Counted from the first letter of the stretch, positions 3,377 through 61,700 are shown. The stretch is DNA of 64,000 nucleotides from Candidatus Nealsonbacteria bacterium (GCA_047456305.1 CP179888.1:445307-509306), one strand, 5' to 3'. The notes: generated by a model from the sequence alone, not told the origin. Numbers and translations: made by a program.

Positions 3377-3973
3377 ATGCAGGATTTAGAAAAAATAAAA
3401 AATGAGGTTTTAAATTGTAAAAAGTGTCCACTTTATAAAACCAGAAAGAATCCTGTGCTCGGTTCCGGAAACTTAGATGCCAAAATAATGTTTTGTGCTG
3501 AAGCGCCAGGATATTGGGAAGATGTAAAAGGCAACCCATTTGTTGGAGCAGCTGGAAAAATTTTAAATGAACTTTTAGAATCCGTGGGTCTAAAGAGAGA
3601 GGAGGTTTATATTTGTAATTTACTCAAATGCCGACCTATAACTCCTGATTTTAAAAATAGAGCTCCAAATTTAAATGAAATAGAAGCTTGCATACCCTAT
3701 TTAGAGAAACAAATTGAAATTATAAAACCAAAAGTAATTTGCACTTTGGGAAATTATTCAACAGCCTTTATCTTTGAAAAATACGGATTAAAAAATCAGA
3801 TCCAGGGGATAAGCAAAATCCACGGAAAACTTTTTGAATCAAAAACTTTATTTGGAAGCATAAAAATTGTTCCTCTTTATCATCCGGCCGTAGCCACCTA
3901 CAACATAAATATGAAAGAAATCCTCAAAAATGATTTTAAGATTTTAGAGAAATTTAAAAAAGATGAACAATAA
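3377..3973 (+). CDS. uracil-DNA glycosylase, family 4
   Basis: CKKCPL, AEAPGYWED (GEAPG-type motif), LLKCRP and LYHPA motifs. Confidence 0.8.
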   Translation: MQDLEKIKNEVLNCKKCPLYKTRKNPVLGSGNLDAKIMFCAEAPGYWEDVKGNPFVGAAGKILNELLESVGLKREEVYICNLLKCRPITPDFKNRAPNLNEIEACIPYLEKQIEIIKPKVICTLGNYSTAFIFEKYGLKNQIQGISKIHGKLFESKTLFGSIKIVPLYHPAVATYNINMKEILKNDFKILEKFKKDEQ

Positions 3974-7845: not shown

Positions 7846-7937
7846 TAGATACCCGAGCCGCAGGCGAAGAAAACAGAGTTTTCTTCTTTACCTTCGCTTT
7901 CATAAATGAAAGCTCGGTGGATGATGAAGGTATCTAA
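7846..7937. repeat. composite box-hairpin repeat (small-element family) closed by a 9-bp inverted repeat
   Basis: TTAGATACC...GGTATCTAA flank ACCCGAGCCGCAGGCGAAG and ACCTTCGCT-TTCAtaaaTGAA-AGCTCGG boxes shared with the copies at 54874, 40571 and 49914. Confidence 0.6.
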
Positions 7938-21279: not shown

Positions 21280-21451
21280 TTCGCTCGGCAGGACATTCGG
21301 GGATAAACCGCTCGGCAACGAAGTTTTCAAAGTACCGACCCTCAAAATCCCAGCGAGATTTTGGGGTCTGCGTTCTCGGCTCGTCGTCCGCCTTCGGCGG
21401 AACCATGCCGACGAGCCTCCGAAAGCTACTTTGAAACTTGTTACCTCGCTT
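21280..21451 (+). repeat. family A structured repeat, copy 1
   Basis: CGCTCGGCA boxes, outer stem AAGTTTTCAAAGTA/TACTTTGAAACTT, hairpin with CCCAGCGA loop, nested hairpin then ACCATGCC, ends TTACCTCGCT. Confidence 0.75.
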
Positions 21452-24934: not shown

Positions 24935-27109
24935 ATGCCTCGTTTATATCCAATTGAAAAGGTCAAAGATATAGGAATTATTGCTCATATTGATGCCGGA
25001 AAAACAACCGTGACAGAACGGGTGCTTTTTTATACCGGAATTTCCCATAAAATTGGAGAAGTTCACGATGGCCAAGCTATTATGGATTGGATGGAGCAAG
25101 AAAGAGAAAGAGGGATTACTATTACCGCTGCTGCCACCACCTGTTTTTGGACTCCACAAGATTTGGACGCCACCCTCCCGCCACCCCGAAAAAAAGATTA
25201 CAACCCACCCACCGCGTCCTCCCATTCGCCTGTCGGCGAACGGGTCCCTAATGAATATAGAATAAATATCATTGATACTCCAGGCCATATTGATTTTACT
25301 GCCGAAGTTCAAAGGTCTCTAAGGGTCTTAGATGGAGCAGTTGTGGTTTTTGATGGGGTGGCGGGAGTAGAGCCTCAGTCAGAAACTGTTTGGCGTCAGG
25401 CTGATACCTTTAAAATTCCCAGAATCTGCTTTATAAACAAAATGGACAGAATAGGAGCCTCTTTTGAAAAAAGTTTAGAATCTATTTTGGAAAAATTATC
25501 TCCGAATGCTCTAGCCCTTCAGCTACCAATTGGCGAAGAAGATAAATTTGAAGGAGTGATTGATCTTTTAAATCTGAAAGCTCTAAAATTTGAAGGTGAT
25601 TTCGGTCAAATAGTAAAAGAAGAAGATATTCCCGCTAATTTATTGGAAAAGGCAAAGGAATGGCGGGCAAAATTAGTTGAGAAAATTGTTGCTGAAGATG
25701 AAAGACTCTTGGAGAAATTTTTAGCTAAAAAAGAAGTTTCTATTGATGAGCTAAGAAAAGTTTTAAGAAAAGCTGTTTTAGACTACAAACTCGTTCCAGT
25801 TTTTTGCGGAGCAGCTCTCAGAAATATAGGAATCCAACCCCTCTTAGATGGAATTTGTTATTATCTTCCCAGTCCTTTAAATCTTCCACCGGTTAAGGGA
25901 ATTGATCCTAAAGATGGAAAAGAAATTGAAAGAAAACCGGAGGATTCAGAAAAATTTTCTGCCTTGGTCTTTAAAGTTGCGGATGACCCTTATGTTGGAA
26001 CCCTAACCTATTTTCGAGTTTATTCTGGTTTCTTAACAAGAGGCTCTTATTTATTAAACTCAACAACAGGAGAGAAAGAAAGGATTGGCCGGATTTTAAG
26101 AATGCATGCTTCGGAAAGAGAAGAGGTAAAAGAAATTTTCACCGGGGATATTGCTGCCACTATAGGGCTGAAAAAAACGTCCACCGGACATACTCTCTGT
26201 GAGATTAATAATCCAATTGTTCTTGAAAAAATTAGTTTTCCTGAACCGGTTATCTCTATACGCATTGAGCCAAAAACCCGGGCTGACCAGGAAAAGATGA
26301 GTTTGGCTCTAAGAAGATTGTCAGAAGAAGACCCCACTTTTAAAACCAAAAGTGATTTAGAAACTGGAGAGACGATTATTTCTGGAATGGGAGAATTGCA
26401 CCTTGAGATTATTGTTGATCGTATGAAAAGAGAATTTAAAGTGGAAGGCCTGGTGGGAAAACCTCAGGTAGCTTATAAGGAGACTATCAAACAGACTGCA
26501 GAGGCTGAAGGAAAATATATTAGACAATCGGGAGGACGAGGTCAATATGGTCATGTTTGGCTAAAGGTTTTACCAAAAAATAGGGGAGAGGGATTCGAAT
26601 TTATTGATGAAATCAAAGGCGGAATTATTCCCAAAGAATTTATTCCGGCAGTAGGAAAGGGAGTAAAGGAAGCTATAGAGAAAGGAATTCTGGCTGGATA
26701 TCCGATGGTTGATATGGAAGTTAGGCTGTATGATGGTTCTTTCCATGATGTAGATTCTTCAGAGGTCGCTTTTAAAATTGCAGGTTCTATAGCTCTTCAA
26801 GAAGCTTCCAAGAGAGCAAAACCAGTGATCCTCGAGCCAATTATGCGGCTTGAGGTTATTGTTCCTGAGGAATTTTTTGGTGATACTATCGGAGATTTAT
26901 CAGCCAGAAGGGGAAAAATTGAAGAGACTAAAGATAGATTAAATCTAAAAGTTATTGATGTTATTGTTCCTTTAGCTGAAATGTTTGGTTATGCCACTGC
27001 CCTACGTTCCTTGACTGAAGGCAGAGGAACCTTTACAATGGAATTTAATTACTACGAGGAAGTACCGGCAAATATTGCTCAGGAAATTATCGAAGGGCGA
27101 AGAAGATAA
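24935..27109 (+). CDS. fusA: elongation factor G, with a ~30-aa GC-rich insertion in the G domain
   Basis: [26 protein letters not shown]. Start taken at the ATG at 24935. Confidence 0.95.
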
Positions 27110-27190
27110 ATCTTCTTCTTGACCCTTCGCTAACGCTCGGGTGGCCGAAGAAGATAAATCTTCTTTTTTTCCCTTCGCTATCGCTCGGGA
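27091..27190 (+). repeat. two tandem small hairpin-box elements overlapping the fusA stop
   Basis: CGAAGGG-c-GAAGAAGA-taaa-TCTTCTTC-ttga-CCCTTCGCTAACGCTCGGG, then GAAGAAGAtaaaTCTTCTT...CCCTTCGCTATCGCTCGGGAG. The fusA TAA lies in the first hairpin loop. Confidence 0.8.
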
Positions 27191-27228
27191 GAAAGAGGAG
27201 ATGATTTTTATCCACAATTAGAGAACCA

Positions 27229-34756: not shown

Positions 34757-34926
34757 CAGCTTTTGGAAGATAATTTTTGGTACACGCAAATTTTTCCAGC
34801 GAAAATTTGCTCCTACTCGCGAATTGCTCGCCGCGAAGCGGCGAGACCAAGCCAATTCGCTGCGGACTCCACCCACCCGCCACCCTCCTAAGAGGCACCT
34901 GTCCCAAAAATTACTTCCCTCGCTTA
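34757..34926 (+). repeat. family A structured repeat, copy 3 (between rplN and rplX), carrying an extra CCACCC-rich ~33-nt insert
   Basis: about 90 percent identical by eye to copy 5, except for CTCCACCCACCCGCCACCCTCCTAAGAGGCACC at 34868-34900. Confidence 0.8.
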
Positions 34927-34987
34927 GAGTTTTTTTATTCGTATATTCTTATTAATTCTTAATTTACAAAGAGATGAAAATAAAAAT

Positions 34988-40573: not shown

Positions 40574-40668
40574 TCGAGAGAAGAAGCTTGCTTCTTCGAA
40601 CCCATCTGCGCTAGTCGATGAAGCTAAAGCTTCATCTCCATCTTCGCTTCCACAAGTGGAAGCTCGAT
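40571..40668 (+). repeat. three consecutive box-hairpin units (between adk and map)
   Basis: TCGAGAGAAGAAGCttgcTTCTTCGAACCC; TCGATGAAGCtaaaGCTTCATC; CTTCGC-TTCCAC-aa-GTGGAA-GCTCGA. Confidence 0.6.
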
Positions 40669-40670
40669 AA

Positions 40671-41435
40671 ATGATTACAATAAAATCAAAAGAGGAAATC
40701 GCTATAATTGCAGAAGGTGGTAAAATCCTGGCAAAAATTATGGCTGAGATAGAAAGAGAAATTCAGCCAGGAATTAAAACTCGCGAATTAGACAGGCTTG
40801 CTGAAAGCCTGATTTTAAAATCTGGAGGAAAATGTTCTTTTAAAGGATATCAAAAATTTCCGGCTTGTTTATGTACATCAATTAATGAAGAAATTGTTCA
40901 CACAGCTCCCTCAGACCGGCAATTAAAGGAAGGCGATATAATTTCTCTTGATTTGGGGATTTGTTTTAAAGGTTTTCATACCGATATGGCGGTTACCCTT
41001 CCGGTTACGAAACCCGGCAATGTAGGGAAAATTGACCCAGAGGCTTTAAGATTAATTCGGGTAACAAAAAAATCTCTAAAAAGAGGAATTAAAAAAGTTC
41101 ACCCGGGAAATACTTTTGGTGATATTGGAAATACTATTCAAAGATATGTTGAGAGCCAGGGATTCAATGTTGTCCGTGATCTTTGCGGTCATGGTATAGG
41201 AAAAGAGATTCACGAGGAACCCCAAATACTTAATTACGGAAAAAGACACACAGGTCCTAAAATTCAAGAGGGGATGATTTTTTGTATTGAACCGATGGTA
41301 ACAATAGGGGATTGGAAAATAAAAAAAAGCAAGGATGGTTACGGATTTGAAACAGCCGATGGTTCCTTGTCTTGCCATTTTGAACATACAATGGCTGTAA
41401 CAAAAGATAGTTGTCAGATCTTGACAGAAATTTAA
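40671..41435 (+). CDS. map: methionine aminopeptidase, type I
   Basis: operon position after adk; size and overall type I MAP pattern (..HG...D..L..GDI...D) by eye. Confidence 0.95.
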   Translation: MITIKSKEEIAIIAEGGKILAKIMAEIEREIQPGIKTRELDRLAESLILKSGGKCSFKGYQKFPACLCTSINEEIVHTAPSDRQLKEGDIISLDLGICFKGFHTDMAVTLPVTKPGNVGKIDPEALRLIRVTKKSLKRGIKKVHPGNTFGDIGNTIQRYVESQGFNVVRDLCGHGIGKEIHEEPQILNYGKRHTGPKIQEGMIFCIEPMVTIGDWKIKKSKDGYGFETADGSLSCHFEHTMAVTKDSCQILTEI

Positions 41436-41556: not shown

Positions 41557-42306
41557 ATGTACTTATCCGTCATCGTTCCTGCCTATAATGAGGAAAGGAG
41601 GTTGCCAAAAACTTTGCGAGAAATCGACAAATATTTAAGGGCAAAAACTTACGATTACGAAATTATTGTTGTTTCCGATGGTTCAAAAGACAGAACAGTT
41701 GAAGTTGTTAGGAATTTAATGGCCGAAATTAAGAATCTGAAAATCCTTGATTTTAAAGAAAATCAGGGTAAAGGTTTTGGTGTCCGCCAGGGAATGCTGG
41801 AGGCAAAAGGGGATTTTCGGCTTTTTACCGATGCCGACAATTCCACTTCGGTCGACCAAGTTGAAAAAATGTGGCCAGAATTTAAGAAGGGCTATGATAT
41901 TGTTATTGGGTCAAGAGATGTGAAGGGAGCGGTTTTAGATCCGCCCCAATCCTGGCTTCATGGATTTTTGGCTGACATTTTTAAGTTATTACGAAAAATA
42001 ATTGCTGGCCTTTGGGAACTTGAAGATACTCAATGTGGTTTTAAATGCTTTACTAAAAAAGCAGCTGAAAGCATTTTTCCCAAGTGTAAAATTAATCGTT
42101 TTGCTTTTGACCCAGAATTTTTAATTGTAGCTAAAAAATTAAGATATAAAATCAAAGAAATTCCAATTTATTGGAAAAATGACCCAGAAAGTAAAGTAAA
42201 GTTCAAAAGCATGGTAAAAATGGGAATTGATTTGTTAAAAATAAGGTGGAATTTAATAACTGAAAAGTATGATGAAACTAAAGTTTCATCAACAGCTTCG
42301 TTTTAA
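41557..42306 (+). CDS. family-2 glycosyltransferase (polyprenol-phosphate glycosyltransferase-like)
   Basis: SVIVPAYNEE, VVSDGSKD and DADNS motifs. Confidence 0.8.
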   Translation: MYLSVIVPAYNEERRLPKTLREIDKYLRAKTYDYEIIVVSDGSKDRTVEVVRNLMAEIKNLKILDFKENQGKGFGVRQGMLEAKGDFRLFTDADNSTSVDQVEKMWPEFKKGYDIVIGSRDVKGAVLDPPQSWLHGFLADIFKLLRKIIAGLWELEDTQCGFKCFTKKAAESIFPKCKINRFAFDPEFLIVAKKLRYKIKEIPIYWKNDPESKVKFKSMVKMGIDLLKIRWNLITEKYDETKVSSTASF

Positions 42307-42324
42307 TAAATTAAAACTCGCTAT

Positions 42325-43362
42325 ATGAATAAGAAAATTAATCAGAAGAAATTTCCTTCTGAATTACGGTTTGATTTGACTTCAAAAGATTGGGTTGTCA
42401 TTGCTACAGGTAGAGCAAAAAGGCCGGAAACTTTCAAGAGAGAAAAGCGGAAAAAAGAGGAATCCCCCAAAGCTCTATGTCCTTTTTGTCAAATTTCCAC
42501 TCAAGAAGCTCCTGTTTTAATTTTTTCTCATGGAAAAAAAATACCTTTAGAAAGGGGAATTCCTAAAGATTGGACTACTATTTCTATTCCTAATAAATTT
42601 CCAGCCTTTCTCCCTTCTAAAAAATTAAATCCAAGAGTTGAAGGAAAATTTTATAAAACAATAAATGCGGTAGGTTTCCATGAAGTAGTAATTACCAGAG
42701 ACCATAAAAAATCAATGGGTCAATTTTCAATTAGTCAGGTTAAAGAAGTACTTGATGTTTACCAGGAAAGATATTTAGAATTAATGAAAGAAAAATTTGT
42801 TAATTACGTTTCTATTTTTCATAACCATGGAGTTGAAGCTGGAGCTTCGATGTCGCATCCTCACTCCCAAATTATAACTACCCCTTTAATTGATGTTGAC
42901 CTTAAAAAAGCTCTCTTTAATTCAAGAAAATATTATAGAGCCCATCGAAAATGTATTTATTGTCAGATGAATAATTGGGAAAAGAAAAATAAAAAAAGAG
43001 TAGTTTTTGAAAATAAAGATTTTTTAGTAATTTGTCCCTTTGCTTCAAAAGCTGCCTTTGAAGTTATTATTTCTCCCCAAAAACATTTAGCTTATTTTGA
43101 GAAAATAACCGAAAAAGAAAAAGAGCTTTTATCTGAAGCTTTCCAGATAGCCTTAAACAAACTTTACAAAGCCCTGAATGATCCGGCTTATAATTTCTAT
43201 TTGCATACTTCCCCTTGCGATGGGAAAAAATATCCCTTTTACCACTGGCACTGGACAATATTACCAAAAACCGCTACCTGGGCTGGTTTTGAAATCGGCA
43301 CCAGAATGGAAATTTCTACCATTGAACCTAAAAAAGCTGCTGAATATTTAAGAAAGCAATAA
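42325..43362 (+). CDS. galactose-1-phosphate uridylyltransferase-like (GalT/HIT superfamily)
   Basis: CPFC zinc motif; HPHSQI (HxHxQ) active site. Confidence 0.7.
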   Translation: MNKKINQKKFPSELRFDLTSKDWVVIATGRAKRPETFKREKRKKEESPKALCPFCQISTQEAPVLIFSHGKKIPLERGIPKDWTTISIPNKFPAFLPSKKLNPRVEGKFYKTINAVGFHEVVITRDHKKSMGQFSISQVKEVLDVYQERYLELMKEKFVNYVSIFHNHGVEAGASMSHPHSQIITTPLIDVDLKKALFNSRKYYRAHRKCIYCQMNNWEKKNKKRVVFENKDFLVICPFASKAAFEVIISPQKHLAYFEKITEKEKELLSEAFQIALNKLYKALNDPAYNFYLHTSPCDGKKYPFYHWHWTILPKTATWAGFEIGTRMEISTIEPKKAAEYLRKQ

Positions 43363-43364
43363 AT

Positions 43365-43558
43365 ATTGCTCGGCAATGAAGTGTTAAAGTACCGATAGTT
43401 CAAATCCCAGCGCGAAGAGGATAAATTCTCTTCTTCCCCCTTCGCTATCGCTCGGGAGCGAGATTTGACTATCTACATTCTCGTCCCGTCGCTCCGACTT
43501 CGTCGGAGACCGTGCCGACGGGACTGCGAAAGTTACTTTAAAACTTATTGCCTCGCTT
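43365..43558 (+). repeat. family A structured repeat, copy 4, with a small hairpin-box element nested in its first loop
   Basis: TTGCTCGGCAA...TTGCCTCGCT. CCCAGCG[43413-43460 insert]CGAGATTTG; GTCCCGTCG/CGACGGGAC around CTCCGAC-ttcg-GTCGGAG then ACCGTGCC. Confidence 0.8.
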
Positions 43559-44387: not shown

Positions 44388-44554
44388 ACCCACATCGGAA
44401 GGGGGTCGGGGAAACCCTTCGGTTTCCCCGTGTAGGAAAATATTAAAAACCGAGGGTTTTTAAAGAGCGAGCCCGAAGCGAGGCTGAGCTTGTCGAAGCC
44501 GAGCGCCAGCCGTAAGGCTGGATGAGGGCGAGCGACTAACTTAGTAATACCACT
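44388..44554 (+). repeat. family B structured element, copy 1, ending exactly at the ATG of 44555
   Basis: shares ACCCAyATCGGAAGGGGGTCGGGGAAACCyTTCGGTTTCCCCGTGTAGGAAAATA, GAGGGTTTyTTAA(A)GAGCGAGCCCGAAG and GAGGGCGAGCGACTAACTTAGTAAyACCACT-ATG with 50574-50760. Confidence 0.8.
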
Positions 44555-45073
44555 ATGGAAAATTTTTCTAAAGGCCATTTTTATAATCCAACCCGAGGAA
44601 ATTTGACATTGCCAAAGGTAATTGAAGAGATATTAAATTATATTGCCGAAAAGCCAGAGAAATTTTATGACATTATTGTTGGCTGTGATTCATCCTCAAA
44701 CCAGGAACCTCATTTCCCCGTGGCAGTAGTTATTTTGAGAATAGGAGAGGGAGGGAGATTTTTTCTTAAAAAAATAAGTTATCCTTTTTCTTCAAAAAAG
44801 AAATTTTATAACTGGAAAGAAAGAGTTCTGGAAGAAGTTTTGCTATCTTGCCAGCTGGCCTTATTTTTGAAGGAAAGTTTAGAAAAACAAATCAAAAAGT
44901 TAGTTCCCCTACCTAATTATCAGTTTCGATATATTCATGCTGATATTGGAGAAAATGGGCAGACAAAAGATATGATAAAAGAAGTGACTGGTCTTATTCA
45001 GGGAAATGGGTTTGAGCCCAAAATAAAACCGGAATCTTTTGTTGCCTCAACAGTAGCAGATAGATATACCTAA
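44555..45073 (+). CDS. YkuK-like (DUF458) RNase-H-fold protein
   Basis: IIVGCDSS...FPVAVVI...IHADIG pattern; moderate recognition only. Confidence 0.45.
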   Translation: MENFSKGHFYNPTRGNLTLPKVIEEILNYIAEKPEKFYDIIVGCDSSSNQEPHFPVAVVILRIGEGGRFFLKKISYPFSSKKKFYNWKERVLEEVLLSCQLALFLKESLEKQIKKLVPLPNYQFRYIHADIGENGQTKDMIKEVTGLIQGNGFEPKIKPESFVASTVADRYT

Positions 45074-49868: not shown

Positions 49869-49968
49869 TCAAAGAAGATAAATCTTCTTCTTCACTCTTC
49901 GTTGCGGCTCGGGTAGTCAAAGAAGATAAATCTTCTTTTCCATCTTCGCTTTAATAAATTAAAGCTCA
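49866..49968 (+). repeat. two tandem small hairpin-box units starting at the infA stop codon
   Basis: TAGTCAAAGAAGAtaaaTCTTCTTCTTCACTCTTCGTTGCGGCTCGGG, then TAGTCAAAGAAGAtaaaTCTTCTTTTCCATCTTCGCT-TTAAtaaaTTAA-AGCTCA. Confidence 0.8.
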
Positions 49969-49972
49969 ATAA

Positions 49973-50086
49973 ATGAAGGTTCGCTCATCAGTTAAAAAAA
50001 TTTGTAAAAATTGTAAAATAGTTCGGCGAAAAGGCCGACTCTATGTTATCTGTAAAAATCCCAAGCATAAACAACGCCAAGGATAA
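49973..50086 (+). CDS. rpmJ: 50S ribosomal protein L36
   Basis: hand-translated [37 protein letters not shown]; below the ORF-track cutoff. Confidence 0.9.
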
Positions 50087-50162: not shown

Positions 50163-50552
50163 ATGCCACGCATAGCTGGTGTAAACATACCAGAACAAAA
50201 ACAAATAGAAGTTGCCTTAACCTATATTTTTGGCATAGGACTGTCTTTGAGCAGAAAGATTTTAGCTACAGCTGGTATTGAAAAGCAGAGACTGGCATCT
50301 GAGTTAACTCCGGAAGAAATAAATCTGCTTAAAGAAATTATTGAAAAAAAATATAAAATTGAGGGGAATCTTAAAAGAGAGATAATGATAAATATTAGAA
50401 GATTAAAAAATATATCTTCTTTTCGAGGAATTCGTCATATTAAAGGGTTACCGGTGAGAGGCCAAAGAACCCGAACAAATACTCGGACTGTCCGGGGGAA
50501 TGTCAGAAAAACAGTAGGATCGGGAAGAAAACCACCGGCAGCCCCCAAGTAA
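50163..50552 (+). CDS. rpsM: 30S ribosomal protein S13
   Basis: MPRIAGV.IP; GIRH..GLPVRGQRT.TN. Confidence 0.95.
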   Translation: MPRIAGVNIPEQKQIEVALTYIFGIGLSLSRKILATAGIEKQRLASELTPEEINLLKEIIEKKYKIEGNLKREIMINIRRLKNISSFRGIRHIKGLPVRGQRTRTNTRTVRGNVRKTVGSGRKPPAAPK

Positions 50553-50573
50553 AGCTTCCTACTAAAACGACCG

Positions 50574-50760
50574 ACCCATATCGGAAGGGGGTCGGGGAAA
50601 CCTTTCGGTTTCCCCGTGTAGGAAAATAAGAGTGAGTTGCTAAAAGCAACGAACGACGTAAGAAAACGAGGGTTTCTTAAGAGCGAGCCCGAAGGTCGAC
50701 GAAGGCGACCGCTGGAGCAAAGCTCCAGAGAGGGCGAGCGACTAACTTAGTAACACCACT
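50574..50760 (+). repeat. family B structured element, copy 2, ending exactly at the rpsK ATG
   Basis: see 44388-44554. Variable helices differ but stay paired: GTCG-acgaagg-CGAC and CTGGAGC-aaa-GCTCCAG, versus GGCT...AGCC and CCAGCC-gtaa-GGCTGG. Confidence 0.8.
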
Positions 50761-51213
50761 ATGGGTAAAAAGAGAATCATCACTAAAACAGAAGAAGAGC
50801 TTTTGAAAGAAAGAGAAAAAGTAGAAGAGAGCCTAAAAAAAGAGGTTAAACTTAAACCCTCTCAAAAGATTAGAGAAGGCAGAATTTATGTTTTAGCTTC
50901 TTATAATAACACCATTATAACTTTAACCGATATTCGGGGAAATGTTTTGGCCTGGGCCAGTGCAGGCAATATTGGATTTAAAGGAACAAAAAAGGCTACT
51001 CCTTTTGCCGCCTCGAGGGTAGCGGAAGTTTTAGCTCAGGCTGCTAAAAAATTAGGAATTGAGAAGGTAGCCGTTTTAGTAAAGGGAATTGGGTCAGGCC
51101 GGGAATCAGCAGTTAGATCTTTGGCTGCCAGAGGTCTTGATATCATTTCAATTAAAGATGTCACACCGATTCCCCATAATGGATGTAGACCGCCAAAAGT
51201 TCGTCGAGTTTAA
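50761..51213 (+). CDS. rpsK: 30S ribosomal protein S11
   Basis: operon position between rpsM and rpsD; S11-like core AS.NNTI.T.TD..GN...W.S.G..GFKG..K.TPFAA. Confidence 0.95.
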
Positions 51214-51881: not shown

Positions 51882-52754
51882 ATGATTCCTTTACCGCTTC
51901 AACCAAAAATTATTGAAAAAAAAGGAAATAGGGCAATCTTTCAGATAGAGGCCCTCTACCCGGGTTATGGAGTGACCATTGGGAATTCTCTGAGAAGAGT
52001 TTTACTCTCTTCTTTAGCGGGGGCAGCGGTTACTCGAGTAAAAATCAGAGGGATTCAGCACGAATTTTCAACAATACCAGGAATTCTGGAAGATGTGATT
52101 GAAATCATACTAAACTTAAAACAGTTGAGATTTAAACTTTTTACTTCAGAAATCCAAAAAGCCAGATTAAAAGTAAAAGGCGAAAAGGAGGTGAAGGCCT
52201 CGGATTTTGAATTGCCCTCACAGGTTGAAATAGTAAATAAAACAGCTCATATCGCTACTTTAACTACCAAAAAAGCTGAACTTGAAATGGAAATCCAAAT
52301 TGAAAAAGGGCTGGGATATCAGCCAAGAGAATCAAGAGAGGAGGAAAAATTAGAAATAGGAGAAATTTCCCTTGATGCTATTTTTACTCCGGTAAAAAAA
52401 GTAAGTTATCAAATTGAAAATATGCGAGTGGGGAAAAGAACCGATTTCGATAGACTAAATTTAGAAATTGAAACCGATGGTCAGATTACTCCCGAAGAAG
52501 CTTTTAGCCAGGCTTCAGAAATTTTGGTAAAACACTTTTCTTTGTTTGCTGAAGTATTCAAAAAGCCAGAAGAGAAAGTAATAGAGGTAGCTCCAGTCAA
52601 AAAGAAAAAAACTATAGCTCGAAAAAAAATTCCCTCCAAAAAACATATCAAAAAACATATGAAGGCGGGAAAAAGGAAAAGACCTTCAGCTCGCCCGCCC
52701 AAATTTCGGAGAAACTTGGTGCGGACTCAGCGCCGTCGTACCTCCAAAAAATAA
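51882..52754 (+). CDS. rpoA: RNA polymerase alpha subunit: N-terminal domain only, plus a basic tail
   Basis: GYG.T.GN.LRR.LLSS..GAA; 290 aa; the last ~65 aa are Lys/Arg-rich with no alpha-CTD-like sequence. Confidence 0.85.
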   Translation: MIPLPLQPKIIEKKGNRAIFQIEALYPGYGVTIGNSLRRVLLSSLAGAAVTRVKIRGIQHEFSTIPGILEDVIEIILNLKQLRFKLFTSEIQKARLKVKGEKEVKASDFELPSQVEIVNKTAHIATLTTKKAELEMEIQIEKGLGYQPRESREEEKLEIGEISLDAIFTPVKKVSYQIENMRVGKRTDFDRLNLEIETDGQITPEEAFSQASEILVKHFSLFAEVFKKPEEKVIEVAPVKKKKTIARKKIPSKKHIKKHMKAGKRKRPSARPPKFRRNLVRTQRRRTSKK

Positions 52755-53474: not shown

Positions 53475-53999
53475 ATGAAGAAAGTTAAAAAGACAAAAAA
53501 AGCAGTTAAAAAAAAGCCTGCCGTCAAAAAAGTTAAGGAAGCAAAAGTTGTAAAAAAAGCCAAAAAGCCAACTCCTAAGAAAAAAGTTAGAAAACCAGCG
53601 CCGCCGCCAGCTCGCTATTTTGAAGCAGTTGGCAAAAGAAAAACAGCGGTAGCAAGGGTGCGTCTATTTACCCGGGGAGAAAAAGTATTTTTAGTTAATG
53701 AAAAACCTTTTACTGTTTATTTTCCCACATTTTACCTTCAACAAATTGCTACAGCCAGCTTAAGAAAGATGCGATGTCTTGATAAATTCAGAGTTTTAGT
53801 TAAAGTTAGGGGAGGTGGAGTAAATGCCCAGGCCGAAGCTTTAAGGCATGGGATAACTCGAGCCCTCACCCTTTTTAATCCTGATTTTAAAAAAAGATTA
53901 AGAAGAGCAGGTTATTTAACTCGTGATGCTAGAAAGAGAGAAAGAAAGAAATTCGGATTAAAACGAGCAAGACGTGCTCCTCAGTGGGCAAAACGATAA
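53475..53999 (+). CDS. rpsI: 30S ribosomal protein S9 (Lys-rich N-terminal extension)
   Basis: GKRK.A.ARV.L..G; GGG...QA.A.RHGI.RAL; C-terminus ARRAPQWAKR. Confidence 0.9.
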   Translation: MKKVKKTKKAVKKKPAVKKVKEAKVVKKAKKPTPKKKVRKPAPPPARYFEAVGKRKTAVARVRLFTRGEKVFLVNEKPFTVYFPTFYLQQIATASLRKMRCLDKFRVLVKVRGGGVNAQAEALRHGITRALTLFNPDFKKRLRRAGYLTRDARKRERKKFGLKRARRAPQWAKR

Positions 54000-54005
54000 A
54001 ATAAT

Positions 54006-54356
54006 ATGGAGACAAAAATTATAAAAGATTCGATAAGCAAAAAAGATCTTATTGATATTGCAAAAAAACAATTTGGCAATTTGGTGAAAGCAGTTGTTGA
54101 TGTTGAGCAGGGAATAATAGCTGTGGCTGGCGAATTGCACGCCGATGAGGAAGTAGCTTTGATTGAAGAGGAAGAATCAAAAAGAGAGCATACTTGGGGT
54201 ATTAATCTTTATCCCGAAAAACCAGAAAAAGAATGGATTGAGTTTGACTCCATTATTAATATCAAGCCTTCTTTTGGCAATCAGTCGCGAGAAGTAGAGA
54301 ACCCGGAAACAAGAGAAAAGATTAAAAACATTGTTCAAAAATTAGTTATTCAATAA
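54006..54356 (+). CDS. hypothetical protein (DUF5674-like)
   Basis: ORF track; family assignment from memory of the sequence pattern only. Confidence 0.4.
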   Translation: METKIIKDSISKKDLIDIAKKQFGNLVKAVVDVEQGIIAVAGELHADEEVALIEEEESKREHTWGINLYPEKPEKEWIEFDSIINIKPSFGNQSREVENPETREKIKNIVQKLVIQ

Positions 54357-54359
54357 AAA

Positions 54360-54707
54360 ATGTCTTTCACGATGCATCAAAATTTAGCTTCAGGTAGATG
54401 GCGAACACTTTCTTTAGTCGAGCAGCTCGCCAATATTGGGAGCGAAGTTGGCCGGGCACGGCGATGGGCTGGTAAAGATCAGAAGTTATATGAAGGAGCA
54501 GTTCAGAGGGCTTTGGAACTATTTGATTTAACGCTGGCTGATTCGCGCTGGAAGGGACGTCTACGAGAAATTGCTCGAGCCAGAGAATTATTTTGCGACG
54601 CTATCACTGGCGGCAGGGAATATAAAAGCTCGCTCAAGGACCTTGAACGTTACTTCTTTTATTACGCCTTAGTTGCCCGTCGAGCTCCCCAGTGGCAAAA
54701 GCGGTAA
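54360..54707 (+). CDS. hypothetical helical protein whose C-terminus duplicates the S9 tail
   Basis: ORF track; visibly GC-richer than its neighbours; ends VARRAPQWQKR against S9 RARRAPQWAKR. Confidence 0.5.
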   Translation: MSFTMHQNLASGRWRTLSLVEQLANIGSEVGRARRWAGKDQKLYEGAVQRALELFDLTLADSRWKGRLREIARARELFCDAITGGREYKSSLKDLERYFFYYALVARRAPQWQKR

Positions 54708-54710
54708 AGT

Positions 54711-54873
54711 GCTCAGGAAGTTAATTTTTGGTACACGCGAATTTTTCCAGCGAAAATTCGCTGCTACTCGCGAATTGCTCCGACTTCGTGGGAGACCAAG
54801 CCAATTCGCTGCGGATTGTCCCAAAAATTACTTCCCTCGCTCCGAAATTTACTCTGAAACTTGTTACCTCGCT
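54711..54873 (+). repeat. family A structured repeat, copy 5, plus a truncated 3' remnant of another copy
   Basis: AATTTTTGGTACA/TGTCCCAAAAATT, GCGAATTTT-tccagcg-AAAATTCGC, GCGAATTG..ACCAAGCCAATTCGC. The following CCGAAATTTACTCTGAAACTTGTTACCTCGCT matches the 3' end of copy 1. Confidence 0.8.
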
Positions 54874-54925
54874 TACCCGAGCCGCAGGCGAAGGGTGAAG
54901 AAAAGGACGAAGTCCTCTTTGCCTA
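54874..54925 (+). repeat. small hairpin-box element
   Basis: ACCCGAGCCGCAGGCGAAGGGTGAAGAAAAGGACgaaGTCCTCTTTGCC. Confidence 0.75.
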
Positions 54926-54936
54926 GTTGATAATTT

Positions 54937-54997
54937 ATGCTCAAAGAATTTTCAATTCATTTCGATCTTCAATAAATTTTCAATTTATTTCGATGTT
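54937..54997 (+). repeat. 61-nt leader repeat, copy 1 (includes the ATG of the Cas4-like gene)
   Basis: identical to 61090-61150 except for one base. Confidence 0.85.
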
Positions 54998-55685
54998 AAA
55001 AGAGTTAATTGATAAATTTTATTTAGACAGAAAAAAAGATAAAGAACAGCAGCATTTTTATATTAGCGAGGCAGGGAAGTGTCCCCGACAGATTTTTTTT
55101 AAATTTAAAAACGCCCCCCGGAAAGAAATGGAGGCAAATATTTTAAGGTTATTTGACCATGGCGACCACATGCACCAGCTTATTATGAAGCCTCTTTTAA
55201 GCACAAGGGAGGTACGAGTGGTATCAGCTGAAGTGGAAATTCCTCCCCAAGAGCTTGTGAAAGGGAGGGCGGATGCAGTAATTAGTGATGGTAAAGAGCT
55301 TTATGTTTTAGATATTAAAAGTATGAATAGTATGATTTTTAGAAATTTAACTTCTCCCAAAGAAGAAAACATTAATCAAATTCAACTCTACCTTCATTAT
55401 TTTAAAATAGCAAAGGGGATACTTCTTTACGTTGATAAAGATAAATTGAATTTGAAAGAATTCGTGATTGATTACAATAAGACATTAGCTGAGAAAATTT
55501 TAAGCGATTTAGCTTACCTAAAAAAACAAATTGATTCCAATATTATTCCTCCGAGAATCCCTGATTATTCAGATAACTGGCAGTGTTCATACTGCCAATT
55601 TAGAGAACTTTGCGATATAGGGGTTCCAGGCGAAATGAACTGGGAAGATTTTAAGAAAAAAATCGAAGCCCAAAATACAAAATAA
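54993..55685 (+). CDS. Cas4-like PD-(D/E)xK nuclease with Fe-S cysteines
   Basis: GKCPRQ near the N-terminus, D...DIK core, C-terminal CSYCQFRELC. Start taken at the ATG at 54993. Confidence 0.6.
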   Translation: MLKELIDKFYLDRKKDKEQQHFYISEAGKCPRQIFFKFKNAPRKEMEANILRLFDHGDHMHQLIMKPLLSTREVRVVSAEVEIPPQELVKGRADAVISDGKELYVLDIKSMNSMIFRNLTSPKEENINQIQLYLHYFKIAKGILLYVDKDKLNLKEFVIDYNKTLAEKILSDLAYLKKQIDSNIIPPRIPDYSDNWQCSYCQFRELCDIGVPGEMNWEDFKKKIEAQNTK

Positions 55686-55737: not shown

Positions 55738-56307
55738 ATGAAACTAAAAAGACTTTCCCGAAAATTCTATACTCGCAAAACTTTAACTGTAGCTAAAGAC
55801 CTTTTAGGAAAATATATAGTCAGGAAAATCGGTTCAAAAAAACTGGTTGGTAAGATTGTTGAGACCGAAGCTTATATTGGGCCAAAAGATAAAGCCAGTC
55901 ATGCTTTTGGGGGAAAGTTAACTCTTAGAAATAAAACAGAATATTTAAAAGGTGGCCACATTTATATTTATCTCTGTTATGGAATGTATTGGCAGTTGAA
56001 TATTACAACTGAGAAAGCTGGGAAACCAGAGTGTGTTTTAATTAGGGCGTTAGAACCAATTGGTAAGGTGAAATCAAAAAAAATTGCTTCAGGTCCTGGG
56101 AAACTTTGCAAATGGATGAAATTAGATAAATCTTTTAATGGAGAAGATTTAGTAAATTCAAAAAAAATATGGTTGGAAGCCGATGAAAAATTAAAAAAGC
56201 AACAGATTATAGCTGCAAAAAGAATCGGCATTGAATATGCCGGCATCTGGAAAGAAAAACCCTGGCGTTTCTATCTCAAGAATAATCCTTTTGTTTCTCA
56301 TTTTTAA
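55738..56307 (+). CDS. mpg: DNA-3-methyladenine glycosylase (Mpg/AAG family)
   Basis: T..VAKDLLGK......G...GKIVETEAY.G..D.ASHA. Confidence 0.8.
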   Translation: MKLKRLSRKFYTRKTLTVAKDLLGKYIVRKIGSKKLVGKIVETEAYIGPKDKASHAFGGKLTLRNKTEYLKGGHIYIYLCYGMYWQLNITTEKAGKPECVLIRALEPIGKVKSKKIASGPGKLCKWMKLDKSFNGEDLVNSKKIWLEADEKLKKQQIIAAKRIGIEYAGIWKEKPWRFYLKNNPFVSHF

Positions 56308-61089: not shown

Positions 61090-61150
61090 ATGCTCAATGA
61101 ATTTTCAATTCATTTCGATCTTCAATAAATTTTCAATTTATTTCGATGTT
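61090..61150 (+). repeat. 61-nt leader repeat, copy 2 (includes the frr ATG)
   Basis: see 54937-54997. Confidence 0.85.
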
Positions 61151-61700
61151 TAAAGAAATTATTAACAAAATCAAACCCGAACTGGACAAAACCATTAATT
61201 TTTTAGATAGGGAATTAGCTAAAATTCGAACTGGACGGGTTTCAGCTTCCTTGGTTGAAGATTTAATGGTTGATTACTACGGAAAAAAAACTCCCTTAAA
61301 ACAAGTATCTTCAATTTCAACTCCTGGTCCTCGAACTCTTTGCATTCAGCCCTGGGACCATTCGATTCTTCTAAATATTGAAAAAGCCATCTTGGAATCA
61401 AATTTGGGGATAAATCCAATTGTTGAGAAAGATTTAATTAGACTTTCTTTGCCTCCTCTAAGTGAAGAATATCGAAAAAATCTTCTTCGAGTTTTAAATG
61501 AAAAATTAGAAGCAGCTCGTTTGACTCTCAGACGCTGGAGAGAGGAAGCCTGGCGCCAGATTCAAGAGGGGTTTAGGCAGGGAAAAATTCGAGAAGATGA
61601 TAAATTTCGGGCAAAAGACGAACTCCAAGAATTGATTGATGAATATAATCAAAAGATTAAAGAGATGGAGGAGAGAAAAAAGAAGGAGATAATGAAGTAA
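61146..61700 (+). CDS. frr: ribosome recycling factor
   Basis: R.GR..P..L....V.YYG...PL.Q...I; 184 aa. Confidence 0.9.
   Translation: MFKEIINKIKPELDKTINFLDRELAKIRTGRVSASLVEDLMVDYYGKKTPLKQVSSISTPGPRTLCIQPWDHSILLNIEKAILESNLGINPIVEKDLIRLSLPPLSEEYRKNLLRVLNEKLEAARLTLRRWREEAWRQIQEGFRQGKIREDDKFRAKDELQELIDEYNQKIKEMEERKKKEIMK

Follow-up and report, generated by a model that had tools for sequence, protein, structure and literature searches.

Why should a helical protein unrelated to ribosomal protein S9 end with the tail of S9? The question is raised by a stretch of 64,000 nucleotides (nt) from a Candidatus Nealsonbacteria bacterium (CP179888.1:445307-509306; hereafter the window, meaning the whole stretch that was analyzed), in which rpsI, the gene for S9, and an open reading frame (ORF) two genes downstream, here called ORF3, finish in nearly the same codons. 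The rpsI gene terminates in ...KRARRAPQWAKR-TAA (...RARRAPQWAKR*) and ORF3 in ...LVARRAPQWQKR-TAA (...VARRAPQWQKR*). The initial annotation had pointed to this likeness, with coordinates and sequences that proved correct, and had read it as the mark of a two-gene block inserted at the 3' end of rpsI, carrying or duplicating that end. Our own answer, held at a probability of roughly 80%, is that the ORF3 tail is the displaced 3' end of rpsI, the scar of an attachment site (att)-type integration at a locus that is now integrase-less. The window is low in GC content (0.356), and rpsI is the last gene of the run rpsK-rpsD-rpoA-rplQ-rplM-rpsI. The features on which the argument turns are these.

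53475 to 53999, plus strand: rpsI (uS9), intact (PF00380, E = 2e-37; NF001099, E = 1e-39).
53973 to 53999, plus strand: upstream copy of the direct repeat (attL-like), CGTGCTCCTCAGTGGGCAAAACGATAA, encoding RAPQWAKR*, delimited by local alignment.
54000 to 54680, plus strand: inserted block, consisting of a 6-nt spacer, the DUF5674 gene and ORF3 through its ARR codons; missing in close relatives.
54006 to 54356, plus strand: DUF5674 gene (PF18924, E = 5e-30), first gene of the pair, beginning six nt past rpsI.
54360 to 54707, plus strand: ORF3, 115 codons, beginning three nt past the DUF5674 gene; a helical bundle whose last 7 codons and stop come from the rpsI repeat.
54681 to 54707, plus strand: downstream copy of the direct repeat (attR-like), CGAGCTCCCCAGTGGCAAAAGCGGTAA, read in frame as RAPQWQKR*.
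54712 to 54925, plus strand: GC-rich, hairpin-forming dispersed repeat, resembling a miniature inverted-repeat transposable element (MITE); outside the rpsI duplication, after the putative scar.
54993 to 55685, plus strand: gene for a Cas4-like PD-(D/E)XK nuclease (PF01930, PF12705), found directly after rpsI in L016, L017, L020, L021 and L022.

The two C termini have 6 of their last 7 residues in common, or 8 of 9 when the RR is counted. We compared the C-terminal 7-mers of all 149 window ORFs of at least 60 amino acids (aa), and the next best of the 11,026 pairs had 4 of 7 residues in common. The two DNA copies match at 21 of 27 nt in the same orientation, and both end at TAA. A chance resemblance, or a chimera made in assembly, would be the simplest explanation of such a short likeness, and the 27-nt DNA match taken alone does lie within a reversed-sequence null (1 observed, 1 null). 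The evidence for a real relationship therefore rests on the frame, the terminal position, the common stop codon and the comparative data. The 6/7 protein match against a maximum of 4/7 elsewhere speaks against chance, as does the identity of the ORF3 tail, APQWQKR, with the S9 tails of four relatives (L003, L017, L019 and L022). The order rpsI-DUF5674-ORF3 is found again in L001, L002 and L048, each an independent assembly, which excludes an assembly artifact, and a decayed homologue of this arrangement is present in L003 and L004. We find chance or chimera scarcely credible.

The tail is foreign to the family to which ORF3 belongs. Homologues of ORF3 fall into 2,682 clusters at E of ≤0.01 and form a large, unnamed and highly conserved family of Patescibacteria; the best 120 of these matches show 64 to 98% identity (E of 1e-42 to 1e-66) and are mostly 107 to 114 aa long. 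Family proteins terminate in ...YFFYYAxxARR followed by 0 to 2 residues. Among the best 120, the sequence APQWQKR occurs solely in P0001, which is the window lineage, and P0002, encoded next to rpsI in L003 and L004, ends in AARRTPGNKK, a degenerate S9-like tail. None of the other 118 top matches carries APQWQKR, and none of about 70 distinct ORF3 loci at rpmG (the L33 gene) or elsewhere has an S9 tail. Homologues away from rpsI, which by the initial annotation would count against its reading if they carried the tail, are thus free of it. The S9 domain (PF00380) was not found in ORF3, and the likeness to S9 is limited to the last 9 residues. When the database was searched again with nothing but the last 49 aa of ORF3, so as to bring tail-bearing homologues to the top, 2 candidates came back, and the search was uninformative. 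The AlphaFold2 model is a confident, all-helical four-helix bundle with a predicted local distance difference test score (pLDDT) of 89, falling to about 60 in the final residues; no PDB fold matched it, and no solved structure or curated family was found that accounts for its function. We found no paper that mentions DUF5674.

The initial annotation had also called the two-gene block GC-richer. This held for ORF3 (0.48) and failed for the DUF5674 gene (0.345), the genome standing at 0.356; the GC-richer part of the locus consists of ORF3 and the following repeat element only. In loci elsewhere, the GC content of ORF3 exceeds that of DUF5674 in 80 of 80 cases. GC-richness was accordingly rejected as a sign of foreign origin: it is a property of the whole ORF3 family and no evidence of recent import.

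The DUF5674 gene and ORF3 occur as a pair at several sites. DUF5674 lies directly upstream of ORF3 wherever upstream DNA is visible, except in L058 and in L106/L107, which have no DUF5674 match. Over 58 distinct loci, the upstream neighbor of the pair is rpmG in 38, rpsI in 5 and some other gene in 15. Additional copies of either gene were also seen, a second, divergent DUF5674-like gene (53% identical) or a second ORF3 (62% identical) lying nearby in L097 (4342-4737) and in L106/L107 (4001-4309 and 5740-6051). The five rpsI-adjacent pairs are those of the window lineage together with L003 and L004. In L003 and L004, whose S9 is 66% identical to that of the window, the pair likewise sits between rpsI and a Cas4-like gene, and the reading frame of ORF3 continues into a degenerate S9-like terminus, RRTPGNKK*. 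In L003 the stop of this tail abuts the Cas4 start (TAACATG), just as rpsI abuts Cas4 in unoccupied genomes.

Unoccupied sites were sought by scanning genomes with S9. The rpsI loci of L011 and L012, whose S9 proteins are 95 to 96% identical to that of the window, lack the pair, as do those of L016, L017, L020, L021 and L022; in four of these last five the gap between rpsI and Cas4 is 1 to 4 nt, and in L017 it is about 70 nt. The flanks of the window and of L011/L012 are 91 to 95% identical at the nucleotide level. Homology ends at the rpsI stop, at 54000 against L011 and about 7 nt later against L012, and restarts at the Cas4 ATG at 54993. The rpsI end is duplicated in the window, and the pair is present or missing between close relatives, as the initial annotation had anticipated both in its insertion claim and in the comparison of rpsI neighborhoods that it proposed. 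The Cas4-like gene is the ancestral right-hand neighbor of rpsI. S9 has remained full length after the insertion, PF00380 aligning over positions 1 to 121 of 121.

The interval between rpsI and Cas4 is a recombination hot spot. Near-identical flanks enclose four different fillings: the pair with the GC-rich repeat, the pair with a 75-nt spacer, a terminator with a small reverse-strand ORF and a remnant of the rpsI end, and 43 nt alone. The Cas4-like gene itself comes in two alleles of about 60% protein identity in strains with 92 to 100% identical flanks (window 54993-55685 compared with L048 3832-4521 and L012 5458-6147). L048 matches the window at 100% up to the Cas4 start and at about 69% nucleotide identity inside the gene, which looks like allelic replacement at the hot spot. 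Further downstream, a methylpurine-DNA glycosylase gene (window 55738-56307) follows Cas4 in the window, L012, L003, L017 and L022, and is missing there in the near-identical L001 and L048 and also in L011.

The rpsI end has left copies elsewhere. A degenerate S9-end pattern was run across all loci; besides true S9 ends, ORF3 tails and remnants, it gave one apparent chance match. In L011, L017 and L042, same-strand remnants of the rpsI end lie 35 to 460 nt past rpsI, each with a different insert. The L011 remnant aligns over about 45 nt and is decayed, and it is of the Q type (as in APQWQKR), like the ORF3 tail of the window; the functional rpsI ends of the window and L011 are both of the A type (as in APQWAKR). 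The window, L011 and L012 differ at 6 to 7 positions in the final 30 nt of rpsI, versus 0 to 4 per 30-nt block elsewhere (post hoc P of ∼0.002).

A parallel case is provided by the 3' end of rpmG. Among the loci fetched with ORF3, the last 60 to 66 nt of rpmG are present 2 to 3 times per locus, in one orientation throughout, and these copies bound cassettes arranged in arrays between rpmG and a tRNA-Trp gene (called by eye from its CCA anticodon loop). Such arrays were seen in loci L049 to L127, for example, L102 (1794-4377), L068 (1961-8231) and L079 (297-2386). Their ORFs are small, co-oriented and mostly without obvious promoters, and the arrays follow a strong promoter. Among the genes carried are those for a BsaWI-like endonuclease together with a methylase, toxin-antitoxin genes (HigB/HTH and HicB) and genes for NlpC/P60, NUDIX, NYN, YceG and MazG proteins, an M23 peptidase and a trypsin-like peptidase; no integrase was found among the rpmG cassettes. 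A partial rpmG end lies within 150 nt past ORF3 in 14 of 64 loci, and across different cassettes the partial copies begin at one common position (TTGAAAAAATTC). The partial copies mostly retain an open reading frame, and they are sometimes split or preceded by GC-rich hairpin inserts of 20 to 40 nt, such as CCCGACTTTCGAGTCGAGGATCCTCGATAGCAATCGGGA, which are nested insertions (L065 at about 2747-2811, L117 at about 1023-1086, L057 at 3599-3663 and L112 at 396-460).

One pair of loci shows replacement of the rpmG 3' end directly. L088 carries 704 nt more than L087 at rpmG, between flanks that are 94% and 99.3% identical. The extra DNA opens with a new rpmG end (10 differences over about 55 nt) and continues with an NlpC/P60 cassette; downstream of it lies the displaced native rpmG end (2 differences), a partial copy. 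This pair is decisive, being the classical signature of integration into the 3' end of a gene.

Integrases stand beside isolated ends of both genes in two viral contigs from IMG/VR. In L129 (8062-9570), a tyrosine integrase (PF00589) lies beside a partial rpmG end, in the order lysin, integrase, small NUMOD3/HTH gene, partial rpmG end, DUF5674, ORF3; its att-proximal arm (...CATTAAGGAACTGC...TTATTAAAAAATCCGTGT) is common to the integrase-less cassettes L063 and L079. In L130 (3536-4870), some 370 nt separate another PF00589 integrase from an isolated rpsI end, ...SAPQWQKR-TAA, which has no S9 body and is followed by a terminator and then queA. That end was recovered solely with the DNA pattern, the scan of viral contigs for S9 relatives having found none. 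The L129 and L130 integrases are homologues of each other, at 30% identity (E = 5e-40). The isolated ends may be the att sites of phages or of integrative elements in Patescibacteria-like hosts.

From these comparisons, the following course of events can be proposed. The ancestral order would have been rpsI and then the Cas4-like gene. Through att-type site-specific recombination, for which a phage-type tyrosine integrase is the most likely catalyst, foreign DNA would have entered the last ∼27 nt of rpsI. The incoming element would have supplied a replacement rpsI end of the A type, keeping S9 intact, and the native end, of the Q type, would have been pushed to the far side of the insert, where it now forms the end of ORF3. 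What survives of the insert would be the DUF5674-ORF3 pair, a deletion having removed the remainder of the element, perhaps by way of the microhomology between the GCC-CGN-CGN (ARR) codons of ORF3 and S9, which would explain the in-frame join. With no stop of its own at the junction, ORF3 would be translated past ...ARR across the displaced codons as far as the former stop of rpsI, and the 7-residue APQWQKR extension would be a by-product. The same process is at work at the rpmG 3' end in related bacteria.

The polarity of the two copies is part of this proposal. Probably the upstream copy (53973-53999) was supplied by the inserted DNA and the downstream copy is the native one, because the native end is the displaced one in L087/L088, because the ORF3 tail of L003 retains the TAACATG junction and because of the context of the isolated rpsI end in L130. 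The Q-type remnant, seen in L011 as well as in the window, and the unusual divergence of the functional rpsI end lend this polarity further, likewise indirect, support.

Several observations weigh against an att-type integration at rpsI. The direct repeat is short (24 to 33 nt) and 78% identical, and as DNA, with its 6 mismatches, it does no better than the null described above. Repeat lengths vary among genomes, from about 20 nt plus terminator in L042, where the duplication takes in the downstream terminator and carries that genome's own WSKR variant, to about 45 nt in L011, and a single fixed att core does not predict such variation. Copies within a locus often carry common lineage-specific substitutions (CQWC in L081, KYC in L108 and WSKR in L042), which fit local duplication or gene conversion equally well as import. 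The sequence after ORF3 is a dispersed repeat and is thus unusable as flank homology. The insert, at 681 nt and with only DUF5674 and ORF3, is far below the size of a self-sufficient element; having no integrase, it is named a scar, or a decayed or trans-dependent remnant, here, and not an active element. Searches with tblastn found no relatives of the L129 and L130 integrases in the 64-kb window or in the other fetched loci, rpsI loci included.

Much of this would be expected if no recombinase had been involved, the tail having arisen by microhomology-mediated template switching or illegitimate recombination at GCC-CGN-CGN, or by tandem duplication and then deletion; the cassette may afterwards have spread by homologous recombination through the rpsI and Cas4 flanks. 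Besides the missing integrase, the differing repeat lengths and the lineage-specific changes common to copies within a locus, such an origin can point to the 8 to 9 nt of microhomology that the ...ARR codons of ORF3 and S9 provide exactly at the junction, to recombination breakpoints that fall within the tail in strains about 1% apart, and to the Cas4 allele replacement next door. However, the rpmG cases involve imported replacement ends and conserved element arms, not local duplication, and the partial rpmG copies begin at the same position across cassettes. Integrases stand directly beside isolated ends of both rpmG and rpsI, and L003 and the window have the same in-frame junction. An origin without a recombinase is therefore unlikely in our judgment, and we continue to favor integration, with an integrase as the inferred agent in the window.

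A last observation against the scar concerns variation in the tail itself. Three DNA variants of the eight tail codons occur in the window, L001 and L002, sequences about 1% apart, and they show 5 synonymous and 0 nonsynonymous differences; this could mean selection on the tail. The S9-like C terminus of ORF3 would then be functional, mimicking the tail that contacts the P site or competing for a partner of the S9 tail; the peptide is intact in four assemblies, and the pair is habitually linked to ribosomal-protein operons. Exchange with functional rpsI ends is another possible source of the purely synonymous variation. The changes are clustered where recombination breakpoints fall, and the codons match those of rpsI. 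The differences between L001 and L002 are confined to the last three codons, precisely where the downstream spacers cease to be homologous, which makes the tail itself a crossover point. Linkage to ribosomal-protein genes is explained by the choice of att site. The tail is, moreover, missing from the rest of the ORF3 family among the best 120 of 2,682 matches, has decayed to RRTPGNKK in the sole other rpsI-adjacent lineage and falls in a low-confidence part of the predicted structure. We found no support for the S9-tail mimic that had been offered as the alternative at the outset, and regard a functional tail as very improbable.

Integration at these gene ends has a precedent. Integrative and mobilizable elements (IMEs) and integrative and conjugative elements (ICEs) of streptococci use tyrosine integrases that target the 3' ends of rpsI, rpmG, rplL and rpmE, and they show direct repeats, tandem accretion and decayed elements (PMC5357655, 2017). 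By analogy, the window case appears to work as the known streptococcal integration into rpsI and rpmG 3' ends does: the targets, the direct repeats of the gene end, the intact target gene, the tandem accretion, the integrase-less decayed remnants and the integrase family are alike. The differences are that the host is Patescibacteria-like and not one of the Firmicutes, that the 681-nt insert has no integrase, relaxase or mobilization genes, that the displaced gene end has become an in-frame continuation of the last ORF of the insert, and that the integrase-bearing relatives found here are prophage-like (lysin, tail-like genes) rather than conjugative. The likeness to islands at tRNA genes drawn by the initial annotation is borne out by this precedent (PMC5357655), by L087/L088 and by L129/L130.

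Other known systems compare as follows. In islands and prophages at tRNA and transfer-messenger RNA (tmRNA) genes, attP carries the 3' end of the target, integration restores the gene and the displaced end remains as the repeat at the far border. Here, unlike there, the target is protein coding, and the displaced end is predicted to be translated as the tail of another protein. Cis-mobilizable elements (CIMEs), described in Streptococcus thermophilus, are flanked by att sites and have no recombination genes. The cassettes resemble them in their small cargo, att-type repeats and lack of an integrase of their own, and L063 and L079 carry the same arm as the integrase-bearing L129; the window block, unlike a CIME, may simply be an immobile deletion remnant. 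The rpmG arrays resemble integron arrays in consisting of small co-oriented ORFs, including toxin-antitoxin and restriction-modification genes, separated by a repeated recombination sequence. In contrast to integrons, no IntI was found beside the arrays in the fetched loci, the repeats are coding ends of rpmG or rpsI and apparently not attC hairpins, and each insertion replaces the end of a host gene.

The window holds further repeated sequences, the first of which directly follows ORF3. The dispersed repeat at 54712-54925 has a GC content of about 49% and belongs to a family of about 170 to 215 nt, with a second copy at 34763-34934 and partial copies near 21417, 36318, 37170, 43491-43558, 46706 and 49915; one copy separates rplN from rplX. 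The repeat folds as a long hairpin enclosing two inner stem-loops (a conserved CCAGCGA loop and a ACCAAGCC motif; z-score, -2.45), and the inner stems differ among copies in a compensatory manner. Rfam gave no match for the GC-rich stretch after ORF3, and L001, which is 99% identical, has no copy of the repeat behind its ORF3. The repeat may represent a MITE or else a structured RNA. The sequence after ORF3 had been considered as a homologue of the sequence after rpsI in L013, L014 and L026, and this candidate was rejected when the sequence turned out to be the dispersed repeat with other copies in the window.

Two AT-rich segments of 80 nt (54937-55016 and 61090-61169) are 91% identical and precede the Cas4-like gene and an ORF that, judged by eye, we take to be frr (ribosome recycling factor), covering the first codons of both genes; the segment may be a common promoter or 5' untranslated region module. 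Two GC-rich segments (44388-44558 and 50574-50764) are 96 to 97% identical, and one of them ends at the start of rpsK. The segment at 50574-50763 matches two places in L011, and Rfam returned nothing for 50350-50800; these segments could be a repeated leader or structured element. Families of short hairpin repeats (AAGAAGATAAATCTTCTT...CTTCGCT...GCTCGGG) occupy intergenic positions 27100-27215, 40612-40674, 42266-42328, 43415-43482, 49872-49976 and 7862-7924. The small genome is unusually rich in such structured intergenic repeats. Among the ribosomal-operon proteins, S9 has a Lys-rich N-terminal extension of about 50 residues (53475-53630), and the C terminus of RpoA is extended by a stretch rich in Lys and Arg (52560-52754).

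Integration explains an S9 tail on an unrelated protein as a by-product and guards against over-reading it as ribosome mimicry; it also illustrates how a displaced gene end can become coding sequence of a neighboring gene. A paper on genetic exchange in Patescibacteria (PMC12455944) makes no mention of such insertion sites. More tentatively, and with the balance of our judgment somewhat on the doubtful side, the 3' ends of terminal ribosomal-protein genes (rpmG and rpsI) in Patescibacteria might be general landing pads for small, mostly integrase-less cassettes that accumulate in co-oriented arrays, are expressed by operon read-through and are moved in trans by one family of phage-type tyrosine integrases. 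If so, their cargo would include restriction-modification and toxin-antitoxin systems, nucleotide-sanitizing enzymes and the DUF5674-ORF3 pair, and they would constitute an integron-like gene capture platform undescribed for the phylum, with the ORF3-S9 chimera as one visible product. The Patescibacteria have almost no genetic tools, and their mobilome is poorly charted. The locus points to defined att sites at the rpsI and rpmG 3' ends and to matching tyrosine integrases in this group. Such sites would help to delimit prophages and islands in metagenome-assembled genomes and to explain strain-level variation beside ribosomal operons, and they suggest integrase/attB pairs for genetic work.

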